Shown: positions 34,586 to 49,792, counted from the first letter of the stretch. The stretch is DNA of 64,000 nt from an uncultured Planctomycetia bacterium (GCA_964605665.1 CAZSDP010000003.1:24941-88940), one strand, 5' to 3'. Numbers and translations: made by a program. Notes: generated by a model from the sequence alone, not told the origin.

Positions 34586-36358
34586 GTGCCGAACAGCAAC
34601 GAGGCCACCGCTACCGCCTCCGGAAGTCGCATCTGCGCTCCTGGTCAGAAGCCGGCGATGAAGCGATCACGTTCGAGCCGCTGGCGGATGTGGACTCTCA
34701 TCAGCGTTCACATTCTTTTCGTGATCCACCTCACCCATTGGTTGACCACTGGACGCACTCTCTCTCCGGTCGAGCCCTCGGAGTCGATGTTCTTCATCGA
34801 GCGAGGGGAGCTCAATGCCGGGTTTGTCTTTTTTGCTTCGACGTTGCTTTTGACCCTGATCTTCGGCCGGTTCTTCTGTGGCTGGGGGTGTCATGTTGTC
34901 GCCCTCCAGGATCTCTGCGGGGCCATCATGAAGAAGTGCGGAGTCCGCCCTAAACTCTTCAAATCGCGCTTCCTGATGTATGTCCCATTGATCATCGGCT
35001 TCGAGATGTTCATCTGGCCTTCGATTCAAATCCACCTCCTCGGCCCCCCTTCTGGAATCATCTCCGACCTCGACTGGGTCGCGTGGCTCGACGGAATCCC
35101 CGCCGCCGGCTGGGTCTTTTCCAATCACCTGATGACGACCGGGTTTTGGGACACATTCGCGGGACCTTGGATGGCGATTCCATTTCTTGGAATCTGCGGA
35201 TTCGCGGTGGTCTACTTCCTTGGGGCAAAGGGATTCTGCACCTATGGTTGCCCCTACGGCGCCTTTTTCGCCGGCGCGGATCGGCTCGCACCGGGGAAGA
35301 TCGTGGCGAATCTCGATGCTTGTGAAAAGTGCGGTCATTGCACCGCCAGCTGCACCTCAAATGTGAGGGTCCATGAGGAGATTCAAGTCTACGAAAAGGT
35401 GGTCTCCCCCGGTTGCATGAAGTGCCTCGACTGCGTGAGCGTCTGCCCCACCGGAGCGCTCTCATTCGGCATGACCACCCCCAAGCTCTTCACGAAACCG
35501 ATCGAAGGGCGAGCTCCAAAAGCGAAGCGATACGATCTGACGATGCGAGAAGAGTTGGTCTACTTCCTGCTCTTCTTTGCGATTCGCTATGCATGGAGGT
35601 CGGTCTACCACGAGGTGCCGATGTTGATGGCGACTGGAATCGCCGGCTGCCTCACCTTCTTGGTTTGGAAGAGTGTCCGCACCTTCCGCGATCGTGACGT
35701 CCGCTTCCTCAAATACCCTCTGAAAAGCGGTGGCCAGGTCGTTCGTCGCGGTCAATTCGTCCGATTTGCGACCTTCGCTCTTCTCCTGCTGACCGTCATC
35801 CTCGGGATCAGCAAATGGCATCAGGAGCAAGCGGAGTGGCAATACTCCCGCCTCGCTCTGCGCAACGTCAATATGGACAACGTACTCCTGGTCGGCCTGC
35901 CACCGGTCAACGATCAAGCTCGCGCCATCGCAGCCCGTGGAGCAGCGCATTTGAGATTGCTCCGGACGATCGGCAACGGGGGGCTCGCTTTGCTTCCTCA
36001 ACCGGATGAACTCCCGATCGAGCAGCGGCTCGGATACTTCTGGGTGATCGCCGGTGATCTCCCGGCAGCGCAAGCCTCTTGGGAAAAAGACCTCCCCGAA
36101 AACCAGAGCGGGGAACTCGCCGCCCGCTATGCCCAGCTGATCTTCCGGCGGTCGTATGACTCCTTTGCCGCCGGAGATCTCGACGGTGCCATCGCGATCG
36201 TTTCAGGAGGGTTGACGCATCTCCCGAACAGCCCATTTCTCGCCGACAAGTTGAGCGTCCTGTACGGTCAAAAGGGAGATCGCACCGCCTCCGACGAGTG
36301 GCGCAAGAAGGCGAATCAGCTCCAAGCGGAAGTACAACGACAATCGACTTCACAGTAG
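34586..36358 (+). CDS. Polyferredoxin-type 4Fe-4S membrane protein (NapH/MauN/COG0348-like) with a C-terminal soluble helical (TPR-like) domain
   Basis: FFCGWGCH, CTYGCPYG, CEKCGHCTASC and CMKCLDCVSVCP motifs interleaved with transmembrane segments. The start is uncertain; the Met at 34658 is also possible. Confidence 0.65.
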   Translation: MPNSNEATATASGSRICAPGQKPAMKRSRSSRWRMWTLISVHILFVIHLTHWLTTGRTLSPVEPSESMFFIERGELNAGFVFFASTLLLTLIFGRFFCGWGCHVVALQDLCGAIMKKCGVRPKLFKSRFLMYVPLIIGFEMFIWPSIQIHLLGPPSGIISDLDWVAWLDGIPAAGWVFSNHLMTTGFWDTFAGPWMAIPFLGICGFAVVYFLGAKGFCTYGCPYGAFFAGADRLAPGKIVANLDACEKCGHCTASCTSNVRVHEEIQVYEKVVSPGCMKCLDCVSVCPTGALSFGMTTPKLFTKPIEGRAPKAKRYDLTMREELVYFLLFFAIRYAWRSVYHEVPMLMATGIAGCLTFLVWKSVRTFRDRDVRFLKYPLKSGGQVVRRGQFVRFATFALLLLTVILGISKWHQEQAEWQYSRLALRNVNMDNVLLVGLPPVNDQARAIAARGAAHLRLLRTIGNGGLALLPQPDELPIEQRLGYFWVIAGDLPAAQASWEKDLPENQSGELAARYAQLIFRRSYDSFAAGDLDGAIAIVSGGLTHLPNSPFLADKLSVLYGQKGDRTASDEWRKKANQLQAEVQRQSTSQ

Positions 36359-36413
36359 CTTCCCTCGCCGACGTCGGGAGACGTGTATCGAGTCGGGATG
36401 CAACAGGAAGAAA

Positions 36414-37384
36414 TCAGCTGGGACTTTCTTCGGTGAGTTCGAGGAAGATCTCTTCCAAGCTCGGTCCTTCGCGGAAGCTCTTCGGCGTGAGACCTCGCTT
36501 CAACGTCAGCTCGAGCACGGCGGCGATCGCCTCCGCTGGATCTGAAGAGTCGTCCAGATTGAGGTGGAATCGTCGGTCAGCGACGTGCTCGGCAGCGGAC
36601 ACCGCAGAGACTGAGCGATAGGCTTCGAGATCCTCTTCAGTCGGAGCCGTGGCAAACTCAAGTTCGATCCGGCGACGAGCACTCATCATCGCCTCGGGCG
36701 TCCCGACCGCCTTCACCTGGCCGCGATCGAGAATCCCCACATCATCGCAAAGATCCTCGAGCTCGAAGAGATTGTGTGAACTGACCACCACCGTGGAGTG
36801 CTCAGAGAGATCAGCGATCACCTCGCGAATCCGCTTGGCATTCCGTGGATCCAATCCCGCCGTCGGCTCGTCGAGGAAGATCAATTCCGGTGACCCGAGA
36901 AACGCCTGCGCGATTCCTAACCTCTTCGCCATCCCATGGGAGAGGACCGACACTCCCCGCTCGAGATAACTTCCCAACCCGACTCGGGTGAGCGCTGCCG
37001 CCACTTCATCCCGAGCCACCCGACGAGAAGCCCCCTGTAGTCGGCGATAAAACACCAATTGATCGAGGATCGAGAGGTTTCGGTCGAAGAGCGCATCTTG
37101 CGGAAGGATGGAGACTCGGCCGAGTAGATCGGGACTCTCCGGAGGCAACCCATCCAAGATCTCGATCTTTCCTCCATCCGGCTTGAGAAAGCCCGCGATG
37201 ATCGAGAAGAGGGTCGTCTTTCCCGCTCCATTCGGTCCGACGAGACCGAAAATGCTCTTCGTTGGCACATCGAAGGAAACTTGATCGAGAGCCTTGACGG
37301 AACCGAACGATCGCGTCACCTCCTCAACCCGTAAACCGAAGGAGGGCGGCTTCTCTCGAGAGGCGCTGGCAGCAGGCTGATTCA
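36414..37384 (-). CDS. ABC transporter ATP-binding protein
   Basis: Walker A GLVGPNGAGKTT, signature LSHGMAKRLGIA, Walker B LIFLDEPTAGLD. The track ORF extends to 37727 but overlaps the upstream permease. A GTG preceded by GGAGGG near 37384 gives a typical N-terminal length. Confidence 0.75.
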
Positions 37385-38305
37385 CAGGTCCCTCCTCTTG
37401 AAGAGAAAGAGCCCGATTGCGAGGTATGCGACGGTGTAGCCGAGGCAACCGAGACTCGCGTGAATCGCCTGTTCCGTTTCGGGGTGGAAGAGTCGATGGC
37501 CAATTCCCCAAGGTGACAGATAGATGATCTTCCCCAACGGCTCCCACGCTTCCATCGCCAAGAACGCGATCGCGGGCACTCCCGGAATGATCACACTGGT
37601 CAAGACCAAGCTGCCAAATGGTGAGGCGACATTCGCCGAGATCAGGGAACAGAGAGCGACATAAGGTAAACTGAGGATCATAAAGGCGATGATTCCTCTC
37701 ACTCCCCACGAGGAGAGCTCGGTCCAAGTATAGAGGGCTCTTCCGCTGTCAGGATCTTCGAGCCGCAGCCCGCTGTAGACCACCACCGCGGCGAGCACCG
37801 CAGAAACCAACACCCAGGTAAAGATCGTCATCCCCAAGAAACGACCGAGGAATAGCTCACCCCGACTGACCCGTAACAGTTGGTAACGAATCGCGCCATA
37901 TTGCAGATCACCGCTCAGTTGATTGAATGCCCCCACCGCAATCAAGAGGGGAATCGCCAACATCTCGATGGCGAAGACCCCGGAGAGCATCGCCGGCTGA
38001 TCTTGCAGTAGGTAGACCGCCCATGTCCCATACTCCTGCATCGATTCTTGCTGCTCACCCATATTAAGGAGCTCTCCAAAGGAGGCTTGGAGGGAAGCCG
38101 CAGCGAGCATGAAACGAAGACTCTGTTCGAGTAAATCGAGCGTTTCTTTCAGGGGAAAAATCCCCGATTCGAAGACCGACAGAAGCGGCTCGATCACGAG
38201 CAAACCGAGCACAAAGGTGAGAAAGACATAGGAGATCCCAGTTCCGTTGCGCAAGAACGCTGGGAACGAGTAACGGATCACCAATCCGATGCGCCGTATG
38301 CTCAT
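37382..38305 (-). CDS. ABC-2-type transporter permease (6 predicted TM segments)
   Basis: A hydrophobic multi-pass protein immediately upstream of, and overlapping, the ATPase gene. Confidence 0.6.
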   Translation of the reverse strand: MSIRRIGLVIRYSFPAFLRNGTGISYVFLTFVLGLLVIEPLLSVFESGIFPLKETLDLLEQSLRFMLAAASLQASFGELLNMGEQQESMQEYGTWAVYLLQDQPAMLSGVFAIEMLAIPLLIAVGAFNQLSGDLQYGAIRYQLLRVSRGELFLGRFLGMTIFTWVLVSAVLAAVVVYSGLRLEDPDSGRALYTWTELSSWGVRGIIAFMILSLPYVALCSLISANVASPFGSLVLTSVIIPGVPAIAFLAMEAWEPLGKIIYLSPWGIGHRLFHPETEQAIHASLGCLGYTVAYLAIGLFLFKRRDL

Positions 38306-38312
38306 CGATCTC

Positions 38313-38786
38313 CTATCTCACCAGGTCTCGTCGGAACACGGTGTGAATCACCACCCCCAAGAAAACCGGGTAGAAGACAGTACGGATCAACCCGATTCCG
38401 AGATCGCGGATGTAGCTCTCCGGCATCCACGCCAAAATGCAAGCGACGGAAACCAGGTCGCAGATCACGTACAGCGTCGTGATGTGCTTCCCCCACACTC
38501 GTTTGCGTCTCAAATACCCAAATCCGGAAATGAAGAGGAGAAGTGCGGAGAGCAGCATCAGACCACCGATCAGAATGATGACCGGTGGAGAGACTTCGAC
38601 GAGTTCTTGAATCCGTCGACCGTCTCCGAAATCTTCTTCGCTTTTCAGCAAATACGGCGCAAAGACAAACCGCTGCAACAAGAATCCCGCAGCACTGAGC
38701 AGCTGAAGAAATGAAAGGAGGAAGTTGATCACCGCGAGCGCAGTCAACCCACTCGGTCGATCGGTTGTCGCCATCGAAGCGCTCAC
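38313..38786 (-). CDS. Small integral membrane protein (4 TM), first gene of the ABC transporter operon
   Basis: 157 aa with four hydrophobic helices and an 8-nt gap to the permease gene. There is no recognisable motif. Confidence 0.45.
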   Translation of the reverse strand: MSASMATTDRPSGLTALAVINFLLSFLQLLSAAGFLLQRFVFAPYLLKSEEDFGDGRRIQELVEVSPPVIILIGGLMLLSALLLFISGFGYLRRKRVWGKHITTLYVICDLVSVACILAWMPESYIRDLGIGLIRTVFYPVFLGVVIHTVFRRDLVR

Positions 38787-39101
38787 TTTATGAAGAGAGG
38801 TGGGACGGACTCGAACAACCTATCGACACCCACTGAGATGCCAACGCGATCCCGGGAACGGGAAAACAGCAGCACCCAGCGGCGCGATCTTCATAGAGTT
38901 TTCCTGAGAAGGCAAGCCAGACCTTCTGCTGGGCGAGTCATCAAGGTTTGAGCTCCGATCGTCGCGGCCAACGCTGCCGCCAGCGCGGCTTGTTGAGCTG
39001 CGAGGATCTCACATCGCCTGCCCACGTCAATTTCTCTCGCTTGAAGTACGCTCAAGCGACTCACCCGGCTCTTCGAGATGAGTCGCGGCAGGGTGCATCG
39101 A

Positions 39102-39539
39102 TCAGTCTTCTAAGAGAAGCTCTAATTCGGAGACATGTTGAGACTCCAGCGTCACCTGCGCTCGAGCAAATTCTTCGAGAACCACATCATTGGTCCCTTC
39201 TACTCGCTCGAGTAGTTCGCGGTACGCATCGAGTGCCGCCTTCTCGAAAACCAAAGCGGTCCTCAACGCCTCGGTCCCCCTCGCTCGCTCGGGCGGAAGA
39301 TCGATCTTCACCGACAGAGTTGGAGTCTCGCCGAGTTGCACGATCTTCTCTGCCACCAATTGAGCGTGCTCGATCGTCTCCTCCATATTTTCGAGGAGGA
39401 TCTTCCGAACAAGAAGACGGTCCATCCCCTTCAAGGTCACCGCCAAATGGAGATAGCGAAGAGAAGCCTCGACCTCTTCTGCATACAGTTCGTTGAGTCG
39501 AGCGAGAGCTTCCTCGCGGGTGATCGGGGTCTCACTCAT
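39102..39539 (-). CDS. Ferritin-like (bacterioferritin/Dps-type four-helix-bundle) protein
   Basis: The start at MSETPITREE has a GGAGGAGGG SD. Ferritin-like helical pattern (EASLRYLHLAV...EETIEHAQLVAEKI...ALVFEKAALDAYRE). It overlaps the DtxR-like gene stop by 8 nt. Confidence 0.6.
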   Translation of the reverse strand: MSETPITREEALARLNELYAEEVEASLRYLHLAVTLKGMDRLLVRKILLENMEETIEHAQLVAEKIVQLGETPTLSVKIDLPPERARGTEALRTALVFEKAALDAYRELLERVEGTNDVVLEEFARAQVTLESQHVSELELLLED

Positions 39540-40083
39540 CTGAAGTCCCTCCTCCATCGGCTTTCTCTGCATTCGAGATTTCACGGGTGAGCGCGTCGAC
39601 CTCTTCAGAGGGAAAACTCTCGCTCTCCCCTCGTCGGCCGAACTTCCGTAACTCGGAGATGAACGCGGTTCCTTCGGGGGTACCGGAGCGAAGGAAGAGC
39701 AGAGCGCGACTCGCCCGCGCAGCAGTCTCATCCGAAACAAGATGTTCGATCTTGCACGTGTCTTGATCTGCTTGTTCCTCAGAAACCCCCAAGAGGTCGA
39801 TAAACAGCTGCTTGAGAACCAACTTCTTCGCCATCACCCCGCGGGCGATCTGAGCCCCCTCTTCGGAGAGACCGAGGAAGCGACGCTCATCCTCGGTGAC
39901 CAGACCGCGCCCTTTGAGCCCCTTCAAGGTGACCGAGACACTACCCCGAGTGATGTCGAGGAGGCGAGCGACGTCAGAGACCCGCGCGTAGCCAAACTCG
40001 TCGAGGAGCTCGCTGATCGCGACGAGGTGGTGGGCCGCGGAGTGGCTCACCGGGTTTTGATCGAATTCCCGCCAATCGTGCAC
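39532..40083 (-). CDS. DtxR/MntR-family metal-dependent transcriptional regulator
   Basis: HTH HHLVAISELLDEFGYARVSDVARLLDITRGSVSVTLKGLKGRGLV, followed by the metal-binding/dimerisation region KKLVLKQLFIDLLGVSEEQADQDTCKIEHLVSDE. The start was moved to a GTG at about 40083 (GAAGGA SD); the track ORF runs to 40209 and would swallow the palindrome at 40170. Confidence 0.7.
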   Translation of the reverse strand: MHDWREFDQNPVSHSAAHHLVAISELLDEFGYARVSDVARLLDITRGSVSVTLKGLKGRGLVTEDERRFLGLSEEGAQIARGVMAKKLVLKQLFIDLLGVSEEQADQDTCKIEHLVSDETAARASRALLFLRSGTPEGTAFISELRKFGRRGESESFPSEEVDALTREISNAEKADGGGTSDE

Positions 40084-40169: not shown

Positions 40170-40189
40170 TTGTTTGAGACGCCAAACAA
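40170..40189. promoter_or_regulatory. 20-bp palindrome TTGTTTG-AGACGC-CAAACAA (candidate operator) upstream of the DtxR-like gene, in the region divergent from feoA
   Basis: Perfect 7-bp inverted arms. The same TTGTTTG-N6-CAAACAA architecture recurs at 48514-48533. Confidence 0.5.
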
Positions 40190-40339
40190 CTTGACGCCTC
40201 GCCAACCAATTCCGTAGGATACCGATCGGCGAACTCAAGATCCTCAACGAAGTTGTTGATTCCCGAAGAAATTCAGCGAGGGAAGCTGCGGACTGGGTAC
40301 TCGCCTGAACATCGATCCCCCAACTCGGTATCTCTCTAA

Positions 40340-40475
40340 TTTGGAGTCTCCTTGATTCGGAGTCCCCCGAGTTCGGTGCCTCCCAAATGTGGAGATTCCG
40401 ACGTGGAGTCTCGACTCGGGGACTGCAGTTTTTGAGTCTGCAGCACTGGAGTCTGCAGCGCTGGAGTCTGCAGTG
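40340..40475. repeat. Array of nine direct repeats with 14-16 bp spacing and core GGAGTC(TGCAG), in the divergent dtxR-like/feoA promoter region
   Basis: GGAGTC-like cores occur at 40343, 40359, 40375 (GGTGCC), 40391 (GGAGAT), 40405, 40419, 40434, 40448 and 40463. The last three are near-perfect GAGTCTGCAGC(A/G)CTG units. Confidence 0.6.
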
Positions 40476-40602
40476 ACCGTTGAAAGTTCTACGGAGGTCC
40501 TCGGGAAAGTATCGAGCGGCCGGTTGGAACGCAAGTGAGCGGCAACGACGTCGGTCTTTCCTTTTGATTCGCACGTTGAGGAGTACAGACGTGAGCAAAG
40601 CG

Positions 40603-40899
40603 ATGGAGCCGACCCCCTCCCACGGCGATTCCTCCTCACCACCTTCAACTCGACCTGGTGATGTCCCCCTCGCCCAGCTCCCAATTGGAGCGGAAGGGAT
40701 CCTCACCAGCGATCGGCTTTGCCCAGAGGATCGCGCACTGCTGAATGCGATCGGCCTCGCCGAACACTCTTCGGTGCGCGTCTGTCGCCAAGGGGAACCT
40801 TGTATCGTCGAAGTGCACACCACCAGGGTGGCACTCGCCCAGGAGATCGCCCGTCAGATCTGGGTCTCTCCGTCAAATTCTCAGGTCGCCTCCCAGTGA
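40603..40899 (+). CDS. feoA: Ferrous iron transport protein A (FeoA)
   Basis: FeoA/SH3-like pattern LAQLPIGAEGILTSD...ALLNAIGLAEHSSVRVCRQGEPCIVEV...RVALAQEIARQIWV. A GTG start at 40591 with a GAGGAG SD is also possible. The track ORF starts at 40480. Confidence 0.7.
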   Translation: MEPTPSHGDSSSPPSTRPGDVPLAQLPIGAEGILTSDRLCPEDRALLNAIGLAEHSSVRVCRQGEPCIVEVHTTRVALAQEIARQIWVSPSNSQVASQ

Positions 40900-40974: not shown

Positions 40975-42957
40975 GTGACTGAGACACCAGCCACCACGAC
41001 TCAACGGCCCGGGGCCGCGGCATCGGCGCGTCAGATCGCGCTGCTCGGAAATCCCAACACTGGGAAAACCAGCCTCTTCAACCGCCTTTGCGGTCTTCGA
41101 GCGCACGTCGCAAACTACCCCGGCATCACTGCCGATGCCCGTCGTGGCCATGCCAAGATCTCCGGCGAGAAGGTCCAATTCATCGACCTTCCCGGAACCT
41201 ATTCTCTCGAACTGGAGCTCCCCGAAAGCCGCCTCTGCCGAGATTGGATCAGCGGAAAGCTCGGTGAACCAGCCCCCGACTTGGTGATCACTGTCCTCGA
41301 TGCTTCGAATTTGATCCGGAATCTGCCGCTTCTCGCCGAAGCGAGGCGGGCAGGCCTCCCGATCGTCGTCGCTCTGACGATGCTCGATCTCGCCAAACAG
41401 CGCGGTCACACCGTCGATCCAAAATTGCTGTCAGAAGAACTGGGAGTCCCGGTGATCGCGGTGAATCCACGCCGGGGCAAGGGAGTCCCTGAGCTGCTAC
41501 AGCAGCTGGGCGAAGTGACCACGTCGGGATCAGACCAGCTCGGAAAAGAGATCGAGTCCACCGAGAACTGGGCTGCCACCGTCACCGACCGAGTGACCAC
41601 GAAGTCGAAGAACACCTCCGATCAGCGGACAAGACGACTCGATCGTCTTTTCACCCATCCCGTGACAGGAGTCTTCACCTTTCTGCTGACGATGGGGATG
41701 CTCTTCTGGTTGATCTTCGAACTGGCGGGAACCCCGATGGGTTGGATCGAGCAGATCTTCGGTTCCCTCGGGAGTCTCTTGACGCAAATCCTCCCCGAAG
41801 GCTTGGTGCGAGATCTCTTGGTCGAAGGGGTGGTGGGAGGAATCGCCGGAACGGTCGTCTTCCTTCCACAGATTTGTCTACTCTTCTTCCTGATCACGCT
41901 GCTGGAAGACACCGGCTACTTGGCCCGCGCTGCATTCGTGGCCAACCGGCTCTTGAGGCCCTTTGGTCTACCTGGTCAGGCTTTTGTCCCGCTCCTCTCC
42001 AGCCATGCGTGCGCGATACCTGGGATCATGTGCAGCCGACTGATCCCCGATCGACAGGACCGCCTCGCGACGATCTTGGTCGCCCCCTTTCTCAGTTGCA
42101 GTGCCCGACTACCGGTCTACACCCTACTGATCGCGTTCCTCTTCGCGGATCGGCCCGAGTTGGCCGGAGTCGCCTTTGCCGGGTGTTACCTTCTCGGCGG
42201 TCTCGCGGCTCTCGTCACCGCGCTGATCTTCAGAAAAACCCTCTTGCGCGGTCGAAGCCGTCCCCTCGTCCTCGAGTTGCCCCCCTATCAGCGCCCATCC
42301 TTCAGGAACGCGGTCCGGGTTGCATTCGACCGGGGAGTGACCTTCCTCGTCAAAGCGGGAACGGTGATCCTTCTCATTTCGGTGGTCCTTTGGTGGCTCT
42401 CAGCATTTCCCAGAGTTGATGAAAGCAGCGCCGTTGTCGATCTGCGAAGCGAGGCAACCTCGGTCGAGTCGGTCGATCCAGACCGAGCTGCCGAGCTGAC
42501 GATCGCCGCGAATCGGCTTGCTGATCGAGAAGCGCTCTCCGCCAGTTTCAGCGGTCGTCTCGGACACTTGGTCGAACCGGTCTTCGCCCCGATCGGCGCC
42601 GACTGGCAACTCTCCATCGCAATTTTGTCGAGCTTTGCTGCCCGAGAGGTCTTCGTCTCGGCACTTCTGGTGACCCTCGGGGGAGACCCAGAGGCAGAAG
42701 GATCGCTCGTCCTCGACACCATTCGCCAGGTTCAACGCGATGATGGAACCGCGCTGCTCACCTTCGCCTCCGCTTTTTCCCTCCTCGTCTTCTACGTCCT
42801 GGCGATGCAGTGCCTTCCCACTCTCGCGGTCACCCGGCGAGAAGCAGGGGGTTGGCGTTGGGCGATGCTGCAGTTCTTCTATATGTCGATCGTCGCTTGG
42901 GTCCTCGCCGCGATCACCTATCGCATCGTGGGCGGGATGACAGGAACCGGTGGATGA
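40975..42957 (+). CDS. feoB: Ferrous iron transport protein B (FeoB)
   Basis: N-terminal G-domain IALLGNPNTGKTSLFNRL...DLPGTYSL, followed by a large polytopic membrane domain. GTG start. Confidence 0.9.
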   Translation: MTETPATTTQRPGAAASARQIALLGNPNTGKTSLFNRLCGLRAHVANYPGITADARRGHAKISGEKVQFIDLPGTYSLELELPESRLCRDWISGKLGEPAPDLVITVLDASNLIRNLPLLAEARRAGLPIVVALTMLDLAKQRGHTVDPKLLSEELGVPVIAVNPRRGKGVPELLQQLGEVTTSGSDQLGKEIESTENWAATVTDRVTTKSKNTSDQRTRRLDRLFTHPVTGVFTFLLTMGMLFWLIFELAGTPMGWIEQIFGSLGSLLTQILPEGLVRDLLVEGVVGGIAGTVVFLPQICLLFFLITLLEDTGYLARAAFVANRLLRPFGLPGQAFVPLLSSHACAIPGIMCSRLIPDRQDRLATILVAPFLSCSARLPVYTLLIAFLFADRPELAGVAFAGCYLLGGLAALVTALIFRKTLLRGRSRPLVLELPPYQRPSFRNAVRVAFDRGVTFLVKAGTVILLISVVLWWLSAFPRVDESSAVVDLRSEATSVESVDPDRAAELTIAANRLADREALSASFSGRLGHLVEPVFAPIGADWQLSIAILSSFAAREVFVSALLVTLGGDPEAEGSLVLDTIRQVQRDDGTALLTFASAFSLLVFYVLAMQCLPTLAVTRREAGGWRWAMLQFFYMSIVAWVLAAITYRIVGGMTGTGG

Positions 42958-43919: not shown

Positions 43920-45047
43920 ATGTACGGCCGAAAGTGGAGCACTCACCAACTGAAATCGAGCCAGCACTTTCTCGCCACGGTTTCGGTACTCCTGATCGCC
44001 ACTTTCAGTTTTGCAGAGGGTCGCGACTCCGAACCGAGTGCGCGCGAAACTCTCGACGCCCTCCATCTTCGGTTTGCCCAAGCCCAGCAAAAGTTTGATC
44101 AACCGTATTTCCAAGCGCGAACAGATGAGGAACGCGAGAAGATCATCCTCGATCCCGCTCAAGATCCGATCCCACTCTTCGTCCCACGATACGTAGAGTT
44201 TGCGGAGCAGTTTCCGGGGAGCGCAGAAGCGGTTGAAGCGTGGATCTTCGCCTTTGAAGCGGGAAGCCGATCGACCCGTTGCACCGACTCGGTGCACGCC
44301 GCTGTCGATGCGTTGATCGACAGTTATCGCGCTCACCCGGCGCTCATCGATTCGATTCCTCTCATCCATCATGTGGGGCCGACAGAAGAGTGTCTGCGAC
44401 TCCTTCGATCACTCGCTGACCCGAGTTCGAGCCGCGAGGTTCGCGCCTATGCGGAATATGGTCTCGCGCGACTGGAGATGCTACTTCCCGATCCAAATCT
44501 CGAAGTCATTCGGAATCGTTTGCAGCGGATCGCCACCGAATGGGGCGAACTCGCCTATCACGAAGATCAGACCTTGGGAGATCGAGTCGATGCCGACCTC
44601 TTCGAACTCGACCACCTCTCGGTCGGAACGGTCGCACCTGAAATCGTCGGCCATGACCTCGATGGAGAGACGATGCGGCTCTCCGACTATCGGGGGCAGG
44701 TGGTCTTACTCCGTTTTTGGGGCAGTTGGTGTGGGGAATCGCGCAGTATGTTCCCCGGTGAACGTGGGCTGGCGACAGAATTTGCGGAGCGACCGGTGGT
44801 CTTCGTCGGAGTCAATAGCGATCCCAACCGCCAAAAGGTCGTCGAGACTGTTCAGCAGCAGCGAATCCCTGGTCGATCTTGGTGGGACGGCGGCTCTCCC
44901 GGGGGAGCGATCGCCCGCCGCTGGAACGTGGTTCGTTGGCCGACGATCTATGTGATCGACGCCGAAGGGGTCATCCGCGGAGCGAACGTCCCCACCCTCG
45001 TGGAAGCCTCTCGATTGATCGAAGAGTGCCTCGCCGAAGGCGATTGA
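43920..45047 (+). CDS. TlpA/redoxin-family thioredoxin-fold protein with a CxxS motif and a long N-terminal helical extension, secreted
   Basis: Signal peptide. The C-terminal thioredoxin fold has GQVVLLRFWGSWCGESRS (WCGES, so CxxS not CxxC) ...VVFVGVNSD...WPTIYVIDAEG. Confidence 0.65.
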   Translation: MYGRKWSTHQLKSSQHFLATVSVLLIATFSFAEGRDSEPSARETLDALHLRFAQAQQKFDQPYFQARTDEEREKIILDPAQDPIPLFVPRYVEFAEQFPGSAEAVEAWIFAFEAGSRSTRCTDSVHAAVDALIDSYRAHPALIDSIPLIHHVGPTEECLRLLRSLADPSSSREVRAYAEYGLARLEMLLPDPNLEVIRNRLQRIATEWGELAYHEDQTLGDRVDADLFELDHLSVGTVAPEIVGHDLDGETMRLSDYRGQVVLLRFWGSWCGESRSMFPGERGLATEFAERPVVFVGVNSDPNRQKVVETVQQQRIPGRSWWDGGSPGGAIARRWNVVRWPTIYVIDAEGVIRGANVPTLVEASRLIEECLAEGD

Positions 45048-45077: not shown

Positions 45078-45665
45078 TCAACGATCGTCCCCTGAAGCCT
45101 CAGGAAACATCGGATTCGCCGGTGGTGCCTCCGGCCGCCCCCGAACTCGCCTGACCCAAGGAAACAGCCACATCTCTCCCAAGACCAAGAGTGATCCGAG
45201 CGCCAGACTGATCAACAGCGCACTTCCACTGCAGATCAACAACCAAGACTTCAAATCGCTGGGCGTCGCTCGCAATAACCATGGGACCCCGAGGGTTCCC
45301 AAGAGCCCACCGAAGCCGAGGAGAACCAGTCCGATCTTACCGCGGGGGTGCAGTGGAGTGAGGGCCACCAAGTGGAAGACGACGAAGAGGACCATCGCCA
45401 AACTGAAGATGTGATCATGAACGAAGGCGAGGAGTTCTCGGTCCCCTTTTGCCACGCGAAACTCAGTTGCGGAGAGATCGTCTTCGTTACCCAAAACCCA
45501 CTCTTGTGCGCTCTTCGAACCAAATCCTCCGGCGCGGCTGGAGTATTGCAGAGCCGCGACCACGACTCCGACCAAGACACAAAGTAGAAAGCAACTCACC
45601 AAAACCCGTGTCGGACGATCCGCCCGGGCGAGAGTGAATCCCTTCTCCTTGTAAAAGCGACTCAT
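45078..45665 (-). CDS. Integral membrane protein (4 TM), last gene of the porin/ApbE operon
   Basis: Start at MSRFYKEK, with an ATGA overlap with the upstream gene. Four hydrophobic helices with His residues in TM2 (FVHDHIF...VVFHLVAL). Confidence 0.45.
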   Translation of the reverse strand: MSRFYKEKGFTLARADRPTRVLVSCFLLCVLVGVVVAALQYSSRAGGFGSKSAQEWVLGNEDDLSATEFRVAKGDRELLAFVHDHIFSLAMVLFVVFHLVALTPLHPRGKIGLVLLGFGGLLGTLGVPWLLRATPSDLKSWLLICSGSALLISLALGSLLVLGEMWLFPWVRRVRGRPEAPPANPMFPEASGDDR

Positions 45666-47113
45666 CGCGCCTCGGCAATCGAGATGCGTTTCACCGCGCG
45701 ATCTCGGGTCGCTCGTTCCGTCTCTCCCACGCCGAGAACCGCAAGGGCGGTCGACCAAGCATCTGCGGTGGTGGCGTCCTCGGCGAAGACTGCGGTCAAA
45801 AGCGGGACCTCGGCGGGCTCACCAGTTTCAGGGTCGATGATATGGGAGCCACGATAACTCTCACCGGAGCAGGCGACCGATGCCCGGGTCAATTCCTCAA
45901 TCTCGAGGGCACAGTCGACCGCTCGAGGATCGACCACCGCAACCGGCCATCCTTTGCAACCCAGCGGAGGATCGAGCGCGAGGATCTGCCCTCCGAAATT
46001 GAGCAGAGCTCTCGACAACCCAAGACGATCGAGTTCTTCCGCAGCGCGATCGAGCGCAAAGCCCTTCCCGATCGCCCCGAGGTCGATTCTTTCGATACGA
46101 GGTCCGCGCGTGACGGTACCCGCCTGAGTATCGAGGTGAATCTCTTTCCACCCGCCAGCGACACGCGAGGGATCGAATGCTCCCCCACTCGCCTCTGCGA
46201 CTTCCAGAGCCCGCGCTAAACAAGTGAGCGTATCGGGATGCACCGAGACCGGTTCTCCCGGAGACGCAGCGAGAATTCGTGCGATGTCGGAACGATCCCG
46301 ACGTCCGTCGAGTTGTTGCGTCAATCGATCCACGACCGCGAAAACCGCATCGATTCCGCGACCCGCTTCCTCCCAGTTCGCCTCGATCGAGACTTCGAGG
46401 AGAGTCCCCATCGCGGGGCGACGCTCCACCCTTTCGGTCGGAACCGCTCCGAGATCAAGGGGCTGCTCCTCCCGCCAAACCAGTCGATCGAGTCCACCAT
46501 CGCGGCGAGCTTGCTCGTGAACCAGCACCAAAGCCCGTCGCACCGCGCGGATCGAAGCGCGCCCGGAAAGGGTGGCTCCGCTGATATTGATCACTTCCCG
46601 GTGCAGCCGAAGGGAGTCATCGATCCCTTTCTTTCGGAACTGCCGCAGAAAGCGCGATCGTGTGATCTCAGCACCGTGACTCTCCCGATAAACACACACG
46701 GCCACGTCTCGGACCTTTTGCTGAGGATCGAGAGATACGATGAAGGTGATCGGACGAAACTTGCCGATCTCATCGACAAATAGAGCTGTTCCCAAGGGGG
46801 AGCCATCGACCGCGAAACCGCGGTAGATGCGTTGGGGAGCATCCGATACGGAGATCCCCCTTTCCTCACGGATCGTCTGGCGACGCTCGGGTGATATGCG
46901 AATCACCGCACTCTCCAGCCGCGAGAGTTTCGGGAAAGCCCGAGCGAGCGCTTGCTCTGTCCGCAGGTGCACCTGCTCTTGGCTCCAAAGCGGATCGGTC
47001 GGCAAACCGATCGCAGTGGCGAGCATCACACCAACGAATGCCGCCAACGCGCGCGACACATTCCTGCGGGGTGGTGTTTTAGAAGTATGTCGCGACGGAG
47101 AACAAGATCGCAT
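45662..47113 (-). CDS. Fusion of an FMN-binding domain and an ApbE-family flavin transferase (FAD:protein FMN transferase)
   Basis: The N-terminus has a TM/signal followed by an FMN_bind-like segment (VSLDPQQKVRDVAVCVYRESHGAEI...INISGATLSGRA; the Ser/Thr in the xSGAT motif is the usual flavinylation site). The C-terminus has ApbE motifs (AMGTLLEVSI, AIGKGFALDRAAEEL, GGQILAL, SHIIDPETGEP). Start uncertain (47113 or 47140). Confidence 0.65.
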   Translation of the reverse strand: MRSCSPSRHTSKTPPRRNVSRALAAFVGVMLATAIGLPTDPLWSQEQVHLRTEQALARAFPKLSRLESAVIRISPERRQTIREERGISVSDAPQRIYRGFAVDGSPLGTALFVDEIGKFRPITFIVSLDPQQKVRDVAVCVYRESHGAEITRSRFLRQFRKKGIDDSLRLHREVINISGATLSGRASIRAVRRALVLVHEQARRDGGLDRLVWREEQPLDLGAVPTERVERRPAMGTLLEVSIEANWEEAGRGIDAVFAVVDRLTQQLDGRRDRSDIARILAASPGEPVSVHPDTLTCLARALEVAEASGGAFDPSRVAGGWKEIHLDTQAGTVTRGPRIERIDLGAIGKGFALDRAAEELDRLGLSRALLNFGGQILALDPPLGCKGWPVAVVDPRAVDCALEIEELTRASVACSGESYRGSHIIDPETGEPAEVPLLTAVFAEDATTADAWSTALAVLGVGETERATRDRAVKRISIAEAR

Positions 47114-48461
47114 CGTTATCCTCACGGGTATGGGACCCATCTTCTAGATTCACCTGGTAGTCGAATTTGAAGACCGTCTCCTCGATCGGGCGGAAGTTCA
47201 ATCCGAAGGTCCAACGCTGAGTCCTCTCCGAGCCGAGTTCGACATGATCGAAGCGAACCGCCGCGGTGAACGTCGATTCATCGGAGAGGAGAGAGGGAGC
47301 GGCCTTGAGGAAAGACTCCGGCATGAAGTGGTACTGGGTCTCAGCGACGAAACCCCAAAGATCATCGGGAACCCCACTGTCGCGGGCGACAGAGTCTCGC
47401 TCGATATCGGCCCGTGCAACTTCACCCCCGAAGCCCCATCCGGCGAGAGATGAGGTGAGAGCGCCCCCCTCGATCTTCCAATCGAAGGCGGAGACGAACA
47501 GGTCTCGGTCTCCTTCGGAGTCGTAGGCGCCATGGAATCCTGAAACACCCAAGTCCACCCCGAGAATCGGTGAGTATCCGACACGCCCGGTCCCAGAAAT
47601 GCCCTTGCTCCCATCCGACTTCAGAGAGGGTCGTCCACCGCGAAGCCCACTCGAAGTATTGAAGTTCGAACTGAATCCGGTCGGAGAAGTCGAGTCAGGC
47701 TCCAAGCCTTCGAAACCATTCACCGCGTAAAACTGATAGTCGAGGACCCCGGACTCACTCGTTTCATACGATCCCAACACACCGACTCCAGCGTCGGTCA
47801 ACGTGGTCGGGATCACGCTACGCGTCACCAACGGTCGATCGGTGAAGTCATTGAGGGGAGAGTCGTGGTAGAGATTGAAGCGACCGAGTGGAACGAGGAT
47901 CGCCCCTGCTCGGAAGGTGAACTCTTCCCCAACGCGCCAATCGAGTGCGGCGAATTCGACCTTGGTCGATCCATCCCCAGCGGGAGCATCACTCCCCCCA
48001 TCTTCGAACTCGATCTCCGCGGCGAAGTGAAAACGCTCGCCGAACTTCGCATCGATCAACGGCACGAAGCGGTGCTGACGAAAGGTGGGACTCGAACCGT
48101 GTTCATCTCGATACTCCAAATCGAGGTAGCCACCGATGGTGGCGGAGACCCCGCCTCGGGAAAATGTGAGGAGTGCGGCGGGGCTCTCATCTCGCGCTGA
48201 ACTCATCGCAACTCGACCCTCCGGAGCGACGCTCGGGTCGGTTTCAAGTTGCTCGATCCGTTCCTCGGCAGCGAGAAGTCGAGACCTCAAATCGGCGAGT
48301 TCGTCGGCGACCTGGTCGCGATTGTCTTCCTTCGAGCTCTCTTGCTCGGCACTGGGGGTGGAAGGTGCTCGCTCCGCGGGAGGATCAGCGAAAAGTGATC
48401 CGCCACCGACCACCAAGGCGATTGTGATCACCAGATTAAGCAGACTGAAAGAGGGCTTCAT
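47079..48461 (-). CDS. Outer-membrane beta-barrel porin (phosphate-selective porin O/P-like) with an N-terminal coiled coil
   Basis: Signal peptide MKPSFSLLNLVITIALVVGGGSLFA. Alternating amphipathic beta-strand pattern. The C-terminal residue is Phe (VATYF), as is typical of OMPs. Confidence 0.6.
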   Translation of the reverse strand: MKPSFSLLNLVITIALVVGGGSLFADPPAERAPSTPSAEQESSKEDNRDQVADELADLRSRLLAAEERIEQLETDPSVAPEGRVAMSSARDESPAALLTFSRGGVSATIGGYLDLEYRDEHGSSPTFRQHRFVPLIDAKFGERFHFAAEIEFEDGGSDAPAGDGSTKVEFAALDWRVGEEFTFRAGAILVPLGRFNLYHDSPLNDFTDRPLVTRSVIPTTLTDAGVGVLGSYETSESGVLDYQFYAVNGFEGLEPDSTSPTGFSSNFNTSSGLRGGRPSLKSDGSKGISGTGRVGYSPILGVDLGVSGFHGAYDSEGDRDLFVSAFDWKIEGGALTSSLAGWGFGGEVARADIERDSVARDSGVPDDLWGFVAETQYHFMPESFLKAAPSLLSDESTFTAAVRFDHVELGSERTQRWTFGLNFRPIEETVFKFDYQVNLEDGSHTREDNDAILFSVATYF

Positions 48462-48513: not shown

Positions 48514-48533
48514 TTGTTTGGTATGCCAAACAA
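48514..48533. promoter_or_regulatory. 20-bp palindrome TTGTTTG-GTATGC-CAAACAA (candidate operator), 53 bp upstream of the porin start codon
   Basis: Perfect 7-bp inverted arms. This is a second copy of the motif seen at 40170-40189. Confidence 0.5.
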
Positions 48534-48769
48534 TCAGGGGCGGAGTCAAGCACTCTTCCAGGAAATCAAGTAAAAAGGTGGCTAAAGTGACAACAGCGGC
48601 GAAAGAAGAGTGATAGTCCCCCTTGACCTTTCCTCCTCCTGATTTCTCAGAACCCTCTCCGTGGGCGTGGGCCCGCACGTCGGAAGGGAGCGCTCTGGTC
48701 GATTCTTGCGCAAAAATCCCCGAGTTCACCGCCTCGGCGATCCTCCGGTTGCGGAAACACTCCGATTGA

Positions 48770-49792
48770 GAAACGGTCGAGAAGGCGATCGCGCTGGTAG
48801 AAGCGAGACGGCGTGCGGCGGGAAGAATCGACGGCGCAGAGACTCTTCTCGCCGACCGAACCGCAGTGGAATAGGCCACCTCCACCGACGTCGCTCGAGA
48901 CAAGGCGAGGCGATTCGCTGCTACCGTCTTCGAACAGGTCCTCGACCTTTGCTGTGGCATCGGAGGGGATGCGATCGCATTTGCCCTCGAGGGAATCGAA
49001 CCGATCCTCGTCGACCTCGAGCCGCGCCGATTGGAAGCAGCGTGCGCCCATGTCTGCTCCATCTTGGGAACCACCCCCCCCGCGCTAATCGCGGACGTCT
49101 CCACTCTATCGATCCCCGACTGCCCCTTTCACCTCGGTCCCGATCGACGTCCAGCTGGGCGGCGGACGGCACAATGGGACGAAATGAAACCGGGACTCGC
49201 GGCCGTCGAGGATTGGATCGAGCGAAACCGTGATGGTGCGATCAAGTTGTCGCCCACCGCGGACTTGGAAGTACTCCCGCGGGGAGAAGTGGAGATCATC
49301 CAAAGAGGTCGCGGACTGGTCCAAGCGATCTTATCGGTCGGTACTCTCGCTTCTACAGATCGAGAGTTGGGCAACCGCGACCCAGCAACCAGTCGACGAG
49401 CCACCCGGATCGATGACGGGGCATCGTTTGTCGTGGATGCCGATCGCCGTCTTCCAGAACTTCCCGAGATCGCACCGGAGCAGGAATGGCTCCACGTCGT
49501 CGAACCTGCCATCGAACGAGCGGGGTTGTTGGGAACTCTCGCTCGGAGTCTCGATTTGACGACTCCCCACGAACACGCGGGTTTCCTCAGCGGCGCTGAA
49601 GCGGCGCTTTCACCGTGGCTTCGTCCGGCACGACTCCACGTCAAACTCCCTGGGAGAATCGAGACCGTTGCCCGCTGGTTCGGCAAACGGCCGGTGGGAC
49701 ATGTAACGATTCGGGTGCGGGGGGGGAGGATCCGCGACCATGGGAGAGAGCGCTGCGGGGGAAGGGAACAGAACGCTATACGGTCCACCTGA
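48770..49792 (+). pseudogene. SAM-dependent methyltransferase-like gene (Tgs1/Methyltransf_15-like motif I) interrupted by an in-frame TAG and lacking a start codon
   Basis: A single frame encodes ...KAIALVEARRRAAGRIDGAETLLADRTAVE-[TAG at 48872]-ATSTDVARDKARRFAATVFEQVLDLCCGIGGDAIAFALEGIEPILVDLEPRRLEAACAHV.... The DLCCGIGGDAIAFA stretch is a SAM-binding motif I. The first in-frame ATG (49031) lies after the motif, and there is an upstream TGA at 48767. Confidence 0.35.

Follow-up and report, generated by a model that had tools for sequence, protein, structure and literature searches.

Paired palindromes in a planctomycete genome region as predicted operators of a DtxR/MntR-family regulator at a conserved Feo-centred uptake island

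Introduction

What binds a 20-bp palindrome that stands twice within one region of a planctomycete genome, and which genes does it govern? The region is a 64,000-nucleotide stretch of DNA from an uncultured Planctomycetia bacterium (GCA_964605665.1, CAZSDP010000003.1:24941-88940), called the window hereafter, and the palindrome occurs at positions 40170–40189, between a gene for a DtxR/MntR-family metalloregulator and a divergent feoA gene, and again at 48514–48533, in front of a porin gene. A first-pass annotation of the window had read the two copies as the sign of a regulon. Metal regulation is essentially unstudied in Planctomycetota, and a full-text literature search returned no paper on a DtxR regulon in this phylum and nothing relevant for the motif string.

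Here, we argue from sequence comparison that both palindromes are very likely to be operators of the adjacent DtxR/MntR-family regulator. The comparison supports control by this regulator of a conserved, Feo-centred uptake island, and probably of its own operon as well. We infer that the DtxR-like protein is the binder, that it represses rather than activates, and that the island includes a reductase function. The switch is well supported as one of a known type and not a new mechanism; what is new is the operator sequence and the target set of an uncharacterised subfamily.

Results

The palindrome occurs twice in the window, beyond chance expectation

Searching the window with the pattern TTGTTTG-N6-CAAACAA, with up to two or up to three mismatches allowed, gave exactly two matches, TTGTTTGAGACGCCAAACAA (copy 1) and TTGTTTGGTATGCCAAACAA (copy 2), which are the two copies reported previously. 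One hundred dinucleotide-preserving shuffles, searched at up to two mismatches, yielded a mean of 0.08 matches and not a single case with two; the observation is therefore real, and the earlier judgement that two copies are unlikely by chance holds.

The arms of the palindrome required revision. An inverted repeat with 7-bp arms and a 6-bp spacer, as originally described, is present, but the orthologous sites introduced below show 8-bp arms and a 4-bp spacer, and the consensus of 33 unique orthologous sites is TTGTTTGG-SWWS-CCAAACAA, in which positions 3–8 and 13–18 reach at least 93% base identity. Copy 2 fits this 8-4-8 consensus perfectly, and copy 1 departs from it by one base, an A for G at position 8. 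A weight matrix built from the 33 sites scores the two palindromes of the window at 30.3 and 23.7 bits, against 3.9 bits for the next-best position in the window and a top score of 11.8 over 20 shuffles. Copy 1 lies 86 nt upstream of the GTG start codon of the regulator gene (position 40083), within the divergent region of about 500 bp that separates this gene from feoA, while the end of copy 2 lies 52 nt from the ATG of the porin gene (position 48461), between the porin operon on the minus strand and a gene for a THUMP-like methyltransferase on the plus strand.

The predicted operator stays at the head of each uptake operon in a conserved island

We compared the window with 87 related Planctomycetota loci (819 kb in all), seven of them found by exact protein look-up and 80 being metagenome loci with a gene for a protein related to the regulator. 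Against the 8-4-8 consensus, these loci contained 22 matches with at most one mismatch and 48 with at most three, compared to 0 and 0–2, respectively, in shuffles of the same DNA. All 48 matches fell into four settings, namely the gap between the dtxR-like gene and the divergent feoA, or positions before the porin, FMN_bind-ApbE or feoB genes, so that the functions of the downstream genes, which the first-pass annotation had proposed to inspect, agree with a regulon. The palindrome is retained upstream of regulator orthologues of 43–82% identity and upstream of the orthologous porin, ApbE and feoB genes, bearing out the regulon originally suggested. Within 350 bp upstream of the regulator gene, about 45 of 92 loci carry a site (three mismatches or fewer), including nearly all loci of at least 66% identity, and the distance from the end of the site to the regulator start codon is 11–90 nt in most loci and 240 nt in two. 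Orthologous sites before porin, ApbE or feoB are found in L009, L024, L028, L033, L035, L040, L043, L135, L149 and L183. Around these sites the flanking sequence is not conserved; what recurs at orthologous positions is the 20-bp core alone.

In the majority gene order (L024, L028, L033, L035 and L040), the uptake part reads DAO – methyltransferase – site – porin – FMN_bind/ApbE – feoB – redoxin and continues as four-transmembrane (4-TM) protein – feoA – site – regulator – dps – x – ABC2 – ABC, followed by a gene for a NapH-like Fe-S protein. The window and L009 carry the same six uptake genes split otherwise, into porin – ApbE – 4-TM and feoA – feoB – (GNAT) – redoxin, and the palindrome heads each uptake operon despite this different partition. 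In L043 and L135, where porin and ApbE are missing, the site immediately precedes feoB. A further site separates porin from ApbE in L040 and L183, directly upstream of the FMN_bind-ApbE gene, and the porin gene of L024 is preceded by two. In most relatives feoB shares an operon with porin and FMN_bind/ApbE, in line with the functional link between the porin/flavin genes and Feo that had been proposed for the window. The genes thus shift between operons and the operator stays at the head, which is our strongest argument both for co-regulation and for the link of the porin/flavin genes with Feo. The DtxR-like gene is the sole transcription factor conserved in the island.

The neighbouring regulator is a two-domain DtxR/MntR-family protein

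The protein encoded next to copy 1 scores 42.4 bits against PF02742 (cut-off 27) and 20.8 bits against PF01325, below the cut-off of 26, a domain that is precomputed in many of its homologues. A profile of the family, searched against the PDB, matched B. subtilis MntR, DtxR and IdeR (1e-17 to 1e-9). All 33 aligned homologues (49–77% identity) begin with MxxW(K/R)EFDQNP, which corresponds to GTG 40083 and confirms the shorter start favoured previously; the longest open reading frame (ORF), from TTG 40209, would contain copy 1 and is not the real gene. With its 183 residues, the protein has no C-terminal SH3-like domain.

Residues H18, C110, E113 and H114 are invariant among the aligned regulator homologues; at the constant offset of 8 between the profile and DtxR, these residues correspond to M10, C102, E105 and H106, which form the primary metal site of DtxR. 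Positions matching the ancillary site of DtxR (H79/E83/H98) are not conserved in the same alignment. In MntR, the manganese ligands are numbered D8, E11, H77, E99, E102 and H103; aligned to the MntR structure 1on1, D8 is replaced by H18, E11 by V21 and E99 by C110, and only E102 and H103 are kept. Because the DtxR-like ligands are invariant, D8 and E99 of MntR are replaced, and the targets are Feo and a ferritin-like gene, the metal sensed is probably Fe2+.

The operator sequence varies together with the recognition helix of the regulator. Regulators with the helix ITRGSVSVTLKGLK go with the operator TGTTTGG..CCAAACA, and those with the helix ITRGSASLTLKALK with ATGTTTTA-N4-TAAAACAT or TTGATCGG..CCAAACAC, whereas no such palindrome was found in the clade with ITRGSVSISLxPLK, where a de novo search for another palindrome upstream of the regulators gave none and showed ordinary TATAAT boxes only. 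This pattern is suggestive of the DtxR-like protein as the binder. As a separate observation, in five loci with the variant operator TTGATCGG..CCAAACAC (L054, L057, L058, L060 and L063), the ORF after the regulator gene is weakly Fur-like (phmmer 1e-7 to 1e-5).

Predicted operator 1 abuts a conserved feoA promoter

The predicted −35 box of feoA (Table 1) begins 1 nt past operator 1, as we call copy 1 from here on. The same geometry, with TTGAC 1 nt after the operator in the direction of feoA and a TAnnnT −10 box 17–18 nt further on, is seen at 21 of the 26 unique sites next to the regulator gene. Six close relatives share both hexamers without change, while conservation is absent on the side facing the regulator gene. 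Copy 1 had been assigned to the leader of the regulator gene and taken as a sign of autoregulation. Autoregulation is plausible, but the site is better described as abutting the −35 box of the divergent feoA, and any control of the regulator gene from it is inseparable from that of feoA. Inside the promoter spacer, 20 nt downstream of the right half of the operator, an element resembling a half-site is kept at a fixed position in the 21 feoA promoters, as nCAAACA or CCAAsCA (CCAAMCA). It is possibly an extra half-site that would bring bound protein onto the core promoter, or the −35 box of a divergent regulator promoter.

At operator 2 (copy 2), a −35-like element points in the direction of the porin gene. 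Its TT(G) is conserved in seven orthologous regions, with a conserved TTG(A/G) 10–13 nt upstream of the operator; we treat the element as tentative because the comparison of these regions gave no convincing −10 box for the porin operon. A search for a promoter of the regulator operon likewise gave no convincing candidate.

The feoA leader of the window (40230–40600) is unusually long, at about 370 nt from the predicted promoter, whereas that of the relative L009 measures about 100 nt. A 15-bp tandem repeat (GAGTCTGCAGCACTG, 2.7 copies, 40434–40473) lies within it, as do four copies of GGAGTCT within 130 bp, and this stretch may be an insertion or a regulatory leader.

Genes of the predicted regulated units

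Since the dps ATG overlaps the end of the regulator gene at its stop codon (ATGAGTGA), the two genes form an operon, and the pair is conserved in all relatives. The porin has a signal peptide, a coiled coil and a beta-barrel that ends in ...ATYF, with the typical C-terminal Phe. Its neighbour, the FMN_bind-ApbE fusion, carries the flavinylation motif ISGAT, which fits [S/T]GA[S/T], together with an N-terminal hydrophobic segment; these are the features of an ApbE-dependent extracytosolic flavinylation system, and flavinylation is accordingly predicted. The longest ORF of the fusion gene shares 62 nt with the end of the porin gene (47079–47140), and the true start may be an internal Met.

The 4-TM protein has an invariant H83-D84-H85...H98 pattern and an EWVxGNExD loop, and its homologues are tagged PF27139 in Pfam. 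Its position directly after feoA in most relatives suggests that it is a partner of FeoA. An assignment as cytochrome b could not be demonstrated, the cytochrome b561 match in Pfam being below cut-off, and an AlphaFold model (pLDDT 79) found no match in the PDB better than E = 0.4.

Table 1 Coordinates of operators, promoter elements and genes around the two palindromes (window positions).
Feature	Position	Strand	Remarks
Dps/ferritin-like gene	39102–39539	−	Pfam Ferritin 1.3e-17
DtxR/MntR-family metalloregulator gene	39532–40083	−	183 aa, GTG start 40083; proposed binder of the palindrome
Operator 1	40170–40189	.	TTGTTTGAGACGCCAAACAA; one mismatch to the 8-4-8 consensus
feoA promoter	40191–40220	+	−35 TTGACG 40191–40196, 18-nt spacer, −10 TAGGAT 40215–40220 (promoter scan)
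Half-site-like element CCAACCA	40202–40208	+	inside the feoA promoter spacer
feoA	40591–40899	+	Pfam FeoA 3.9e-11; GTG 40591 after Shine-Dalgarno-like GAGGAG; alternative ATG 40603
feoB, Fe2+ transporter gene	40975–42957	+	Pfam FeoB_N, Gate, FeoB_C
AhpC/TSA-type thioredoxin-fold protein gene	43920–45047	+	Pfam; after feoB in all relatives
Four-helix (4-TM) membrane protein gene	45078–45665	−	last gene of the porin operon in the window
FMN_bind-ApbE fusion gene	45662–47140	−	Pfam ApbE 9e-43, FMN_bind 2e-5
Outer-membrane porin gene	47079–48461	−	Porin_O_P at cut-off; first gene after operator 2
Operator 2	48514–48533	.	TTGTTTGGTATGCCAAACAA; perfect consensus
−35-like element TTGACT	48544–48549	−	10 nt upstream of operator 2; candidate porin promoter element
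THUMP-like/SAM methyltransferase homologue gene	48656–49792	+	divergent from operator 2

The methyltransferase gene on the far side of operator 2 is probably a bystander. It has two in-frame stops in the window, where it may be a pseudogene or contain sequence errors, and its homologues are intact (385–392 aa). As the start of the gene lies at a constant 49–57 bp from the operator in relatives, co-regulation is possible.

On the other side of the regulator–dps pair lie genes for a NapH-like 4Fe-4S membrane protein (34586–36358, plus strand) and, all on the minus strand, an ABC ATPase, an ABC-2 permease and an ORF of 157 aa of unknown nature (38313–38786). Together (34586–39100) they are syntenic with regulator–dps in all long relatives; none of the four has a palindrome of its own, and they may be co-transcribed with dtxR–dps. 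In a further observation on the island, the contig of a close relative (L001) ends just downstream of feoA in tandem units of about 100 bp (positions 1–300), and these tandem copies are probably the reason for the assembly break.

The palindrome accompanies feo genes beyond Planctomycetota

The same palindrome occurs in a Desulfobacterota clade of DtxR-family regulators that are 20–26% identical to the protein of the window and are encoded beside feoAB or a FeoB-associated gene. In L119, a perfect site (TTGTTTGGGCTGCCAAACAA) separates the regulator gene from a weak FeoB-associated ORF; in L211, a site with one mismatch (TTGTTTGGTATACCAAACAT) lies between feoA–feoB and the regulator gene, and L208 has a site with three mismatches (TTGTTTGCTAAACCAAACTT). 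The recurrence of regulator, feo genes and motif in such a distant clade supports the DtxR-like protein as the binder.

An exact-pattern scan of GTDB, the genome-wide search that the first-pass annotation had called for, gave at least 120 loci, most of them chance matches in unrelated phyla, so that the scan serves neither as a measure of enrichment nor as a full map of the regulon. Nonetheless, feoB lies beside the site in 8 of the 120 matches listed, and by our own rough estimate one feoB per 4-Mb genome would lead to well under one such coincidence in 120 pieces. The matches with feoB include metagenome-assembled genomes (MAGs) labelled Latescibacterota (L160), Gemmatimonadaceae (L122) and Peribacteria (L109), and feoA was confirmed in L160 and L122.

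Other exact matches were set aside. About a dozen matches in Paenibacillus, considered as a second regulon, lie inside an ABC-F ATPase gene and are a coding coincidence, because the pattern encodes LFGxPNN just before the LLDEPTNHL of this protein; the exact 16-base pattern occurs in the Paenibacillus loci L118, L130, L139, L155, L161, L166, L171, L181 and L195. Planctomycetota matches in L147, L158 and L170 were not taken as members of the regulon, being intragenic or located beside unrelated genes. In L147, a Planctomycetota MAG, the motif is centred in a perfect palindrome of 42 bp (ttcccgccccaTTGTTTGGCATGCCAAACAAtggggcgggaa, 6397–6438) about 280 bp upstream of a DUF1559/pseudopilin-type gene.

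Alternative explanations of the palindrome

Several observations speak against an iron-responsive repressor of the DtxR family at these sites, and we weigh them here together with the explanations that they would favour. Operator 1 is centred near −47, upstream of the −35 box and away from the classical repressor position that overlaps −10/−35, and activation is possible for this reason. The metal-loaded regulator could be an activator, or act in both directions, for instance by turning on dtxR–dps for storage as IdeR does at bfrA/bfrB. Co-transcription of the ferritin-like gene with the regulator would suit this arrangement, as storage induction at high iron is physiologically sensible, and so would the variable distance between operator and regulator start (11–240 nt). 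However, uptake genes such as feoAB and the porin gene should be silent while the sensor carries metal, the operator of several relatives ends 11–14 nt before the regulator start codon, which is a blocking position, and the half-site-like element in the feoA promoter spacer suggests that bound protein reaches the core promoter. We consider an activating or dual role unlikely, though it keeps a real share of our uncertainty, and favour repression.

A second set of observations concerns the metal. Source annotations label the regulator family as Mn-dependent, and FeoB homologues can carry manganese in some bacteria. The regulator might thus bind the site as proposed and sense Mn2+ in the manner of MntR, with the Feo/porin/flavin system serving manganese uptake or the balance of manganese and iron; MntR gives its best matches, both in solved structures and in the NCBIfam models, and, like MntR, it has no SH3-like third domain. 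Yet the NCBIfam MntR models give only 62.4 and 57.6 bits, far under the equivalog cut-offs of 153 and 138 (NCBIfam DtxR gives 43 bits against a cut-off of 290), the MntR ligands D8, E11 and E99 are replaced and the Cys-x-x-Glu-His of the iron-sensing DtxR/IdeR proteins is invariant. Moreover, the regulon contains FeoAB and a ferritin-like gene, and neither MntH nor a manganese ABC importer is encoded beside any of the sites. Manganese sensing appears rather improbable on this evidence, and Fe2+ remains the favoured ligand.

The identity of the binder itself can also be questioned. In L206, an unclassified MAG, a perfect palindrome (2017–2036) lies between a Fur-family gene (PF01475, 5e-25) and feoB, and no DtxR-like gene is present in the 8-kb piece of this locus; in L109, L122 and L160, the palindrome precedes feoAB and no regulator is visible within the short pieces examined. 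Two of the five Desulfobacterota loci (L209 and L210) are without a full site, and the co-variation of recognition helix and operator is confounded by shared ancestry. Another iron sensor, for example one of the Fur family encoded elsewhere, might then bind the palindrome, with the DtxR-like gene only one of its targets. The four non-Planctomycete loci that have the palindrome and feoAB without a DtxR-like gene in the pieces examined fit such a reading, and given the arrangement in L206, where a different iron sensor could use or share the site, a Fur-type binder stays a rival in other lineages. For the window, several lines of evidence point the other way. It has no Fur-family ORF, the palindrome is unlike the classical Fur box, and no match to that box (GATAATGATAATCATTATC-like, 19 bp) was found in the window at up to three mismatches, so that neither a Fur regulon nor a Fur box is recognisable here. 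By comparison, the DtxR-like gene constantly accompanies the site, in about 45 loci, the operator variant tracks the recognition helix of its product, the distant second DtxR clade repeats the combination of regulator gene, feo and motif, and the geometry of two pentamers separated by 4 bp is that of the DtxR family. We regard another sensor as quite improbable, and the DtxR-like protein as the predicted binder.

Finally, the palindrome is most improbable as an RNA hairpin (an attenuator, terminator or stability element) or as a dispersed repeat resembling repetitive extragenic palindromes (REP) or miniature inverted-repeat transposable elements (MITE), since the folding of both strands into hairpins of 8–10 bp (−10 to −16 kcal/mol, z about −2.4 to −3.0) is trivial for a palindromic sequence and the 42-bp palindrome of L147 is the only other point in favour, while the feoA-side site lies upstream of a conserved −35 box and outside that transcript, arguing for a role at the DNA level, the arm positions 3–8 and 13–18 are invariant in base identity (at least 93%) without co-variation, the 20-bp core alone recurs between flanks that are not conserved, no T-run follows the hairpin, and no Rfam family matched in the window.

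Discussion

Our preferred model is that of a repressor loaded with metal. One metal-loaded dimer of the regulator, most likely carrying Fe2+, would bind each TTGTTTGG-N4-CCAAACAA site, with operator 1 governing the feoA–feoB promoter and regulator–dps, and operator 2 governing the operon of porin, FMN_bind/ApbE and 4-TM protein. With iron sufficient, the bound regulator would shut off the uptake genes and probably damp its own operon; with iron scarce, it would leave the DNA and the genes would be expressed. The porin would then let iron species into the periplasm, where the self-flavinylating FMN protein, together with the 4-TM protein and/or the thioredoxin-fold protein, might supply the electrons that yield Fe2+, and FeoA and FeoB would import the resulting Fe2+.

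A bolder reading joins these results with those from other phyla. The operator and the two-domain, Cys-containing regulator could represent an ancient, cross-phylum Feo switch, which in Planctomycetes would rule an undescribed, envelope-spanning machine for reductive iron uptake, made up of a dedicated porin, a self-flavinylating FMN protein, a His-rich 4-TM partner of FeoA, a thioredoxin-fold protein and FeoB. The phyla concerned would be Planctomycetota and Desulfobacterota, with the palindrome before feoAB also in Latescibacterota, Gemmatimonadota and Peribacteria MAGs. We put this forward as a tentative possibility about which doubt outweighs belief at present.

The outcome of the analysis is a precise 20-bp operator, a candidate regulator and a defined target set. 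It also links the genes for a porin, for a periplasmic protein predicted to be flavinylated and for an uncharacterised membrane protein to those of FeoAB. The link between the porin/flavin genes and Feo bears on how Feo-dependent bacteria obtain Fe2+ in oxic water, and the motif before feoAB in other phyla may help to annotate the iron regulons of uncultured bacteria.

Compared to known systems, the regulator and its sites have the traits of the DtxR/IdeR/MntR family, namely its domains, an operator of pentamer-N4-pentamer form and placement of that operator at promoters. Metal-dependent binding is predicted, with indirect support from the co-variation of helix and operator and from the second, Desulfobacterota clade. 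The supposition in the first-pass annotation of a site of the DtxR dimer type is thus upheld, with the paired pentamers as in IdeR and the 8-N4-8 layout as in MntR. For IdeR, the site of one dimer is TTAGG-N4-CCTAA, and the iron box of actinobacterial IdeR/DtxR is 19 bp long (TTAGGTTAGSCTAACCTAA; PMC8464063). Like IdeR and DtxR, the regulator combines a winged helix-turn-helix with a PF02742 domain, has the same invariant Cys-x-x-Glu-His metal site, and probably regulates itself, and its operators consist of inverted pentamers 4 bp apart, with GG/CC innermost, in promoters of genes for iron uptake and storage. Its operator differs from that of IdeR by one base in each half-site, TTTGG in place of TTAGG (core TTTGG-N4-CCAAA), and by arms that continue on the outer side to a length of 8 bp (TTGTTTGG), in place of a second dimer site that overlaps the first; the window contains no TTAGG-N4-CCTAA, even at one mismatch. 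In our own alignment (offset 8), the base-contacting residues Ser37, Pro39 and Gln43 of IdeR correspond to T45, G47 and V51 here. With no SH3-like third domain and with His in place of M10, the regulator does not appear to be an IdeR/DtxR proper, that is, a three-domain protein with a 19-bp iron box.

Among solved structures, B. subtilis MntR (PDB 1on1) comes closest in sequence (E 1e-16), and it belongs to the same two-domain size class. The two share the GYARVSD(I/V)A motif and an operator of 20 bp in 8-N4-8 form, the MntR box of enterobacteria and alpha-proteobacteria being AACATAGC-N4-GCTATGTT (PMC1698941). The half-site sequence is unrelated, however, D8, E11 and E99 are not conserved, the scores stay below the equivalog cut-offs, and the targets are Feo and a ferritin-like gene instead of MntH or a manganese ABC transporter, so that the protein would not be classed as a manganese-sensing MntR equivalog.

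ApbE-flavinylated proteins have been connected with P19/FTR1 or VIT1 transporters in iron assimilation (Meheust et al. 2021, PMC8238504), in a paper whose main text names neither FeoB nor Planctomycetes. As in those systems, the genes for ApbE and for FMN_bind with its SGAT motif accompany genes for an iron transporter and a thioredoxin-like protein; the island differs from them in that the transporter is FeoAB, FMN_bind and ApbE are fused, and an outer-membrane porin and a novel, His-rich 4-TM protein are added. By analogy, this set of flavin, iron-transporter and thioredoxin-like genes suggests periplasmic redox chemistry that serves iron uptake.

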